This document shows positions 61,988 to 62,145 of a stretch of 64,000 nt of DNA, piece by piece (within the stretch, counting starts at the first letter, position 1; each line of letters starts with the position of its first letter). The translations under genes and the position numbers were made by a program. The notes beneath the pieces are model-generated. The model did not search any database and was not told the origin of the DNA. It saw nothing but the letters and a program-made list of their open reading frames with translations. The stretch lies in assembly GCF_054482525.1 (NCBI RefSeq), contig NZ_CM137006.1. The stretch is one strand, 5' to 3'.

Positions 61988-62062
61988 GTAAGTTACTCGT
62001 CTTACAGGCGGTGGCTCGATCTTAGCGATGTGTGTCAGGCTGCGCAAATTTCTCTATTAATT

Positions 62063-62079
62063 GGCTGATCGGACTTGTT
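62063..62079. promoter_or_regulatory. FadR activator site in the fabB promoter
   Basis: GGCTGATCGGACTTGTT, about 67 bp upstream of the fabB ATG. Confidence 0.5.
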
Positions 62080-62081
62080 CG

Positions 62082-62097
62082 GCGTACAAGTGTACGC
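62082..62097. promoter_or_regulatory. FabR-operator-like perfect palindrome in the fabB promoter
   Basis: GCGTACAAGTGTACGC, a perfect 16-bp palindrome immediately after the FadR-like site. Confidence 0.5.
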
Positions 62098-62145
62098 TAT
62101 TGTGCATTCGAAACTTACTCTATGTGCGACTTACAGAGGTATTGA

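Follow-up and report, generated by a model that had tools for sequence, protein, structure and literature searches.

Adjacent FadR and FabR operators at the fabB promoter in the mnmC-fabB divergent region of Escherichia coli

The fabB promoter of Escherichia coli K-12 reportedly carries a FadR site together with a FabR palindrome, both being attributed to the work of Campbell & Cronan 2001, Zhang et al. 2002 and Feng & Cronan 2011, and the primary footprint papers on these sites are said to be Campbell & Cronan 2001, Feng & Cronan 2009 and 2011 and Zhu et al. 2009. The fabB dual operator is already known, a textbook element in one of the best-characterised bacterial promoters. A 56-bp K-12 fabB probe, TCTATTAAATGGCTGATCGGACTTGTTCGGCGTACAAGTGTACGCTATTGTGCATTC, was gel-shifted by FadR and was not shifted by the DNA-binding-defective FadR W60G (PMC4259882). 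Long-chain acyl-CoA is described in general terms as releasing FadR (PMC4259882), and release by acyl-CoA in experiment was reported for the Shewanella fabA probe only (PMC4537474). The FabR palindrome marked in the fabB probe is GGCGTACAAGTGTACGCT (PMC4537474), the quoted 18-mer FabR consensus is AGCGTACACGTGTTCGCT (PMC4273635), and occupancy of the Salmonella fabB promoter by FabR in vivo was seen by ChIP (PMC4804515). [quoted passage not shown] The same kind of source names FabR as the dominant regulator at fabB and FadR as the dominant regulator at fabA. Given this dominance of FabR, the contribution of FadR at fabB would be modest, as in strain K113, a fadR point mutant (W60G) in which fabB-lacZ was down 2- to 2.5-fold (PMC4259882).

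The fabA promoter of E. coli has the same order and spacing as that of fabB, its FadR site AACTGATCGGACTTGTT being separated by a 1-bp gap (C) from the 18-bp FabR site AGCGTACACGTGTTAGCT, and the final T of the FabR site is also the first base of the -10 hexamer, as in fabB. The two promoters have 16 consecutive identical bases (CTGATCGGACTTGTTC), their FadR sites are identical at 15/17 positions and their FabR sites at 14/18, with fabA being the poorer palindrome. Additional start sites were reported for fabA, unlike fabB (PMC7083825). At fabA, Shewanella oneidensis and Vibrio cholerae have a FadR site next to a FabR palindrome, as E. coli does at fabB, whereas the fabB genes of Shewanella and Vibrio, unlike that of E. 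coli, are without a FadR site; a Shewanella fabA-lacZ fusion in E. coli was regulated by E. coli FadR and FabR (PMC4537474). The operators of the fad regulon (fadL, fadBA, fadD and fadI) have the same 17-bp FadR recognition pattern as the fabB site. They overlap the -10 region or start site and repress, whereas the fabB site is located at about -40 and activates, and the fabB core CTGATC...GACT departs from the strong-site core CTGGTC...GACC.

The region examined here belongs to a 64-kb stretch of E. coli chromosome, referred to as the window, in which positions 62048-62145 fall between two genes that carry the annotations mnmC and fabB in 5425 genomes. The 351 bp surrounding the operators found matches in 5425/5426 complete E. 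coli genomes, several strains being 100% identical. The genes and operators are as follows, with operator boundaries drawn from the probe tables in PMC4259882 and PMC4537474 and from secondary accounts.

61988-62145: the mnmC-fabB divergent intergenic region, 158 bp
59981-61987, minus strand: mnmC coding sequence, starting at the GTG at 61987 as in the K-12 annotation
62146-63366, plus strand: fabB coding sequence (beta-ketoacyl-ACP synthase I, 406 aa), an open reading frame with its ATG at 62146, annotated as fabB
62063-62079, plus strand: FadR operator GGCTGATCGGACTTGTT, 17 bp, -46 to -30 from the published fabB start, identical to K-12 and to the EMSA probe
62081-62098, no strand assigned: FabR operator GGCGTACAAGTGTACGCT, 18 bp, -28 to -11, with arms GCGTACA/TGTACGC and centre AG
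62135-62139, plus strand: Shine-Dalgarno sequence AGAGG of fabB, 6 nt 5' of the ATG, as read from the sequence

In the mechanical list of open reading frames mnmC extends 60 nt further upstream, to a TTG at 62047 that already belongs to the intergenic promoter DNA. Neither fadR nor fabR is located in the 64-kb window, and a tRNA-Arg(CCT) at 37254-37328 on the minus strand was its sole tRNA and sole Rfam match.

The intergenic region of the window differs from that of K-12 MG1655 by two SNPs in 158 bp, both outside the operators: 62036 (C in the window, A in K-12), which falls inside a published CpxR box, and 62061 (T in the window, A in K-12), which is 2 bp 5' of the FadR site at an unconserved position and is the one base at which the 56-bp probe differs from the window. 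Over the 36 bp of the composite 62063-62098 the window agrees at every base with K-12 MG1655 and with the FadR and FabR EMSA probes of the literature. The K-12 fabB promoter has the same locus and the same neighbours, with operators, -10 hexamer, start region, Shine-Dalgarno sequence and ATG all identical. The sequence-only reading had proposed a FadR-like site at 62063-62079, and both its letters and its coordinates were exact. It had further described 62082-62097 (GCGTACAAGTGTACGC) as a perfect 16-bp palindrome, for which sequence and position were right and the word perfect was not, 14/16 positions being symmetric. The reverse complement of GCGTACAAGTGTACGC is GCGTACACTTGTACGC, and the inverted-repeat search gave perfect 7-bp arms, GCGTACA (62082-62088) and TGTACGC (62091-62097), around a centre AG that is non-self-complementary. 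The 2-bp gap (CG) that it had placed between the two sites holds for GCGTACAAGTGTACGC and becomes 1 bp for the published 18-bp FabR site. Its expectation of dual control of fabB, with FadR as activator and FabR as repressor, agrees with the literature, since the locus is the fabB promoter and the sites are those of K-12. Its statement that both sites are intact was borne out base for base against K-12 MG1655 and the published fabB probe, and divergence from the validated operators at critical positions, which it had named as the observation that would speak against it, was absent.

The occurrence of both motifs was compared with chance within the window. The FabR consensus, allowing at most 3 mismatches, had its sole match in 64 kb at 62081-62098 (expected 0.06), where 15/18 positions are identical to the consensus and the ACAnnTGT FabR core (from PMC4804515) is present. 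The fabA FadR 17-mer, again with at most 3 mismatches, had its sole match in 64 kb at 62063-62079 (expected 0.14), and 13/100 shuffles contained at least one such match. Using a FadR weight matrix built from six published sites (PMC4259882) with the fabB site left out, the fabB site scored 17.95 and ranked 3 among approximately 128,000 window positions, the two ranks above it being the fadL operators, both members of the training set. The FadR and FabR motifs exceed chance. The fadL operators, at 42589-42605 and 42613-42629 on the minus strand, are published and identical to EMSA probes, and the next rank after the fabB site was a strong FadR site, AAGTGGTCTGACCTGAT, at 43297-43313 just 5' of the start codon of fadI. 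These sites at fadL and fadI act as internal positive controls for the matrix.

The fabB start had been mapped by RACE to 37 bp upstream of the ATG (PMC7083825), and it was transferred to the window by the numbering of that paper, the conversion being checked on the CpxR box given there (-112 to -98, corresponding to 62034-62048). The consensus scan for promoters and terminators called neither in the window. It requires at least 4/6 matches per hexamer, and the absence of a promoter call is explained by the -35 elements here, which match at only 3/6. The assignment of promoters therefore relied on the published start and on conservation, and it gave the following elements for fabB.

62109 (+/-1), plus strand: fabB transcription start, from the RACE mapping in PMC7083825
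62075-62080, plus strand: putative -35 hexamer TTGTTC, -34 to -29, 3/6 matches to TTGACA, partly within the 3' end of the FadR site
62098-62103, plus strand: putative -10 hexamer TATTGT, -11 to -6, its first T common with the FabR site

We infer that TATTGT, which ends 5 nt upstream of the mapped start, is the sole plausible -10 hexamer of fabB and that the -35 hexamer is TTGTTC, placed upstream of it across a 17-bp spacer. The FadR site, at -46 to -30, is thereby situated in the -40 region and overlaps the weak -35 hexamer, which is the placement that secondary literature gives for FadR sites that activate (the -40 region and not the -10 or start site). The FabR site fills the 17-bp spacer between the -35 and -10 hexamers, and its last T is the first base of the -10. 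A FadR site in the -40 region combined with a FabR site in the spacer fits activation by FadR and repression by FabR through occlusion.

Conservation was assessed at two levels. Within the species, the composite 62063-62098 was 100% identical in 5425/5426 complete E. coli genomes, the most divergent composite being changed at its first two bases only, and it was intact even in the 28 genomes in which the 351-bp surroundings were only 90-95% identical. Across species, the upstream regions of fabB loci from 80 species (Enterobacterales and neighbouring groups) were compared, with per-position counts taken over 79. Per-column identity to the window among the 80 species was 0.79-1.00 across 62064-62099, except for 0.59 at the palindrome-centre base 62090, and it was 0.05-0.3 in the flanks at 62052-62058 and 62115-62123; purifying selection is thus stronger on the operators than on the flanking intergenic DNA.

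The FadR part CTGATCGGACTTGTT, 15 bp, was kept in about 73-79 of the 79 species with every base above 90%, and the first two bases (GG) of the 17-mer varied freely; TTGTTC was present in 75/79. Thirteen of the 18 FabR-site positions were invariant in the 79 species, variation being limited to 62081 (G/A), the centre 62089-62090 (AG in 43 species, AC in 26, TC in 6 and GG in 4) and the pair 62084 (G/T) and 62095 (C/A), which are equivalent positions of the two half-sites. Substitutions confined in this way to the centre and to the 62084/62095 pair are the pattern expected of a dimer that reads half-sites and leaves the centre uncontacted. In the -10 hexamer T62098 (79/79 species), A62099 (78/79) and T62103 (78/79) were near-invariant, which supports its assignment, and the middle bases were variable (TATTGT, TAAAGT, TAGAGT, TATCTT). 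The GC at 62104-62105, directly after the -10 hexamer (TATTGT-GC), was approximately 94% conserved across the 79 species and could represent a G+C discriminator or extra FabR contacts. Conservation across species was also seen for the leader block AGAGGTATTGAATG around the fabB Shine-Dalgarno sequence. A 9-mer, CTTACAGAG, is common to the 5' leaders of fabB (62130-62138) and K-12 fabA (minus strand), where it immediately precedes or overlaps the ribosome-binding site and has a register to the ATG that differs between the two genes. In fabB it is retained in close relatives only and may reflect chance or shared ancestry.

The two sites did not always occur together. The FabR palindrome was kept and the FadR half absent in two Rosenbergiella loci (L047, L058), in Schmidhempelia (L075) and in Alkalimonas (L084), a loss in keeping with the published fabB promoters of Shewanella and Vibrio, which have no FadR site, and TTGTTC was retained in the Rosenbergiella and Schmidhempelia loci despite this loss. 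The two Edwardsiella loci (L071, L073) have 1 extra base between the FadR and FabR sites, and in the endosymbiont Gullanella (L078) both sites were decayed. These loci show that the FadR and FabR halves are separable and can be lost independently in nature. Some other repeats in the region were considered and set aside. The 9-nt inverted repeat ACTTGTTCG/CGTACAAGT (62073-62091), which bridges both operators, was rejected as a third symmetric site because its pairing requires AG at the centre, where 36/79 species have AC, TC or GG, and the direct repeats D1-D3 and the inverted repeats I2 and I4 (GTAAGTT/AACTTAC and CGTCTTACAG/CGACTTACAG) were treated as chance because they are partly in poorly conserved columns.

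Taken together, 62063-62098 is almost certainly the native dual operator of the E. coli sigma-70 fabB promoter. For this reading the identity of the sites, their placement with respect to the published start, their very high degree of conservation and the layout common with fabA come from the present analysis, and binding, ligands and the direction of regulation come from the literature. A chance resemblance of both motifs to operators, with no regulatory role, has a negligible probability. Such motifs are short, and a match to the fabA FadR 17-mer arose in the 13 of 100 shuffles mentioned above, but the expected counts in the window were only 0.06 for FabR and 0.14 for FadR, the motifs are adjacent to each other on the core promoter of the very gene expected, and the composite does not vary among 5425 E. 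coli genomes and hardly varies among 79 species. Its conservation and the published binding to the identical sequence in effect already refute this explanation. It is also hard to sustain that the palindrome is an RNA or DNA hairpin, acting as attenuator or terminator of a divergent gene, rather than a protein operator, and we consider this extremely improbable. The 7-bp inverted arms are indeed G+C-rich, but the palindrome is upstream both of the fabB start at 62109 and of the putative mnmC start and would thus be in neither mRNA. Moreover, it is not followed by a T-run, the scan gave no terminator call, a hairpin here would have a loop of just 2 nt, an Rfam family match is absent at the palindrome, and changes at 62084/62095 in the arms were one-sided in 20/24 variant species, which breaks pairing and is tolerated by a reader of half-sites.

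A further possibility is that the upstream element is mainly core promoter, i.e. a -35 hexamer with upstream contacts, and that fabB is in effect under FabR alone. FabR is reported as the main fabB regulator, TTGTTC and the FabR palindrome persist without CTGATCGGAC in Rosenbergiella and Schmidhempelia, and fabB has no FadR site in Shewanella and Vibrio (PMC4537474), all of which would be compatible with such a promoter. FadR, however, shifts the identical K-12 probe, and fabB-lacZ expression falls 2- to 2.5-fold in the W60G mutant K113. In addition, all 15 bp of CTGATCGGACTTGTT, and not the -35 portion alone, are present in more than 90% of the 79 species, and the site ranks 3rd with a matrix made from other FadR sites. 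Given these results, we regard a promoter controlled only by FabR as very unlikely at this locus.

If the dual operator works as the literature and the layout suggest, a FadR dimer (GntR family) on the 17-bp site at approximately -46 to -30 would overlap the weak -35 hexamer and aid RNA polymerase, so that fabB is activated. Imported fatty acids would give rise to long-chain acyl-CoA and release FadR, and transcription of fabB would be lowered. FabR (TetR family) on the adjacent 18-bp palindrome, touching the first base of the -10 hexamer, would block RNA polymerase. With its binding stronger in the presence of unsaturated acyl-ACP/CoA and weaker with the saturated forms, FabR could exert feedback on the unsaturated-to-saturated fatty acid ratio. 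The centres of the FadR and FabR sites are 18.5 bp apart. Simultaneous occupancy of both sites and steric occlusion of the polymerase are what we infer from this geometry together with the putative -35 and -10 hexamers.

Upstream of the dual operator the same intergenic region contains a published CpxR box, through which fabB is reportedly activated in acid (PMC7083825), and a probable promoter of the divergent gene.

62034-62048, plus strand: published CpxR box, GTAAGgctgcGCAAA in K-12 and GTCAGgctgcGCAAA in the window owing to the SNP at 62036
62019-62047, minus strand: putative mnmC promoter, with -35 TTGCGC (62047-62042), a 17-bp spacer and -10 TAAGAT (62024-62019)

The CpxR footprint extends from -119 to -94 from the ATG, corresponding to 62027-62052, and the box within it from -112 to -98 from the ATG (PMC7083825). 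The SNP at 62036 changes the upstream half-site from GTAAG in K-12 to GTCAG in the window. With a 59-bp query (62000-62058), 1247/5426 genomes were at least 99% identical to the window and 3858 were 95-99% identical, which indicated that the window has a common minority allele. Other Enterobacterales genera mostly have C at 62036, and the upstream CpxR half-site is not conserved among them. Two blocks in this part of the region, GATcTTAgCG (62018-62027) and GCAAATTT (62044-62051), are conserved at fixed spacing with a variable spacer in approximately 75 species. Read on the minus strand, their letters and spacing are likely, and most simply, explained as the promoter of the divergent mnmC gene, from which transcription would begin near 62012. 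Its -35 TTGCGC has 3/6 consensus matches and its -10 is TAAAAT or TATGAT in other genera; the consensus scan, for which at least 4/6 is needed, did not call this promoter here or in two other genera. The putative mnmC promoter overlaps the CpxR box at 62034-62048. The box might be a recent, polymorphic E. coli feature whose strongly conserved downstream half GCAAATTT may owe its conservation to being the -35 of the divergent mnmC promoter. We propose this only tentatively and think it unlikely, the basis for it being that GTAAG is found in K-12-like strains only and that GTCAG is found in the window and in roughly a quarter of the genomes.

These results have several implications. The recognition of an experimentally validated dual operator from its letters, as achieved by the sequence-only reading, can be taken as a positive control. 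The comparison across species provides a single-base footprint of the divergent region, in which freedom to vary is seen at the centre of the palindrome, at one symmetric position of its arms and at the two leading bases of the FadR site. If the CpxR box is a recent polymorphic feature, strains like that of the window would have weaker CpxR-dependent acid induction of fabB.
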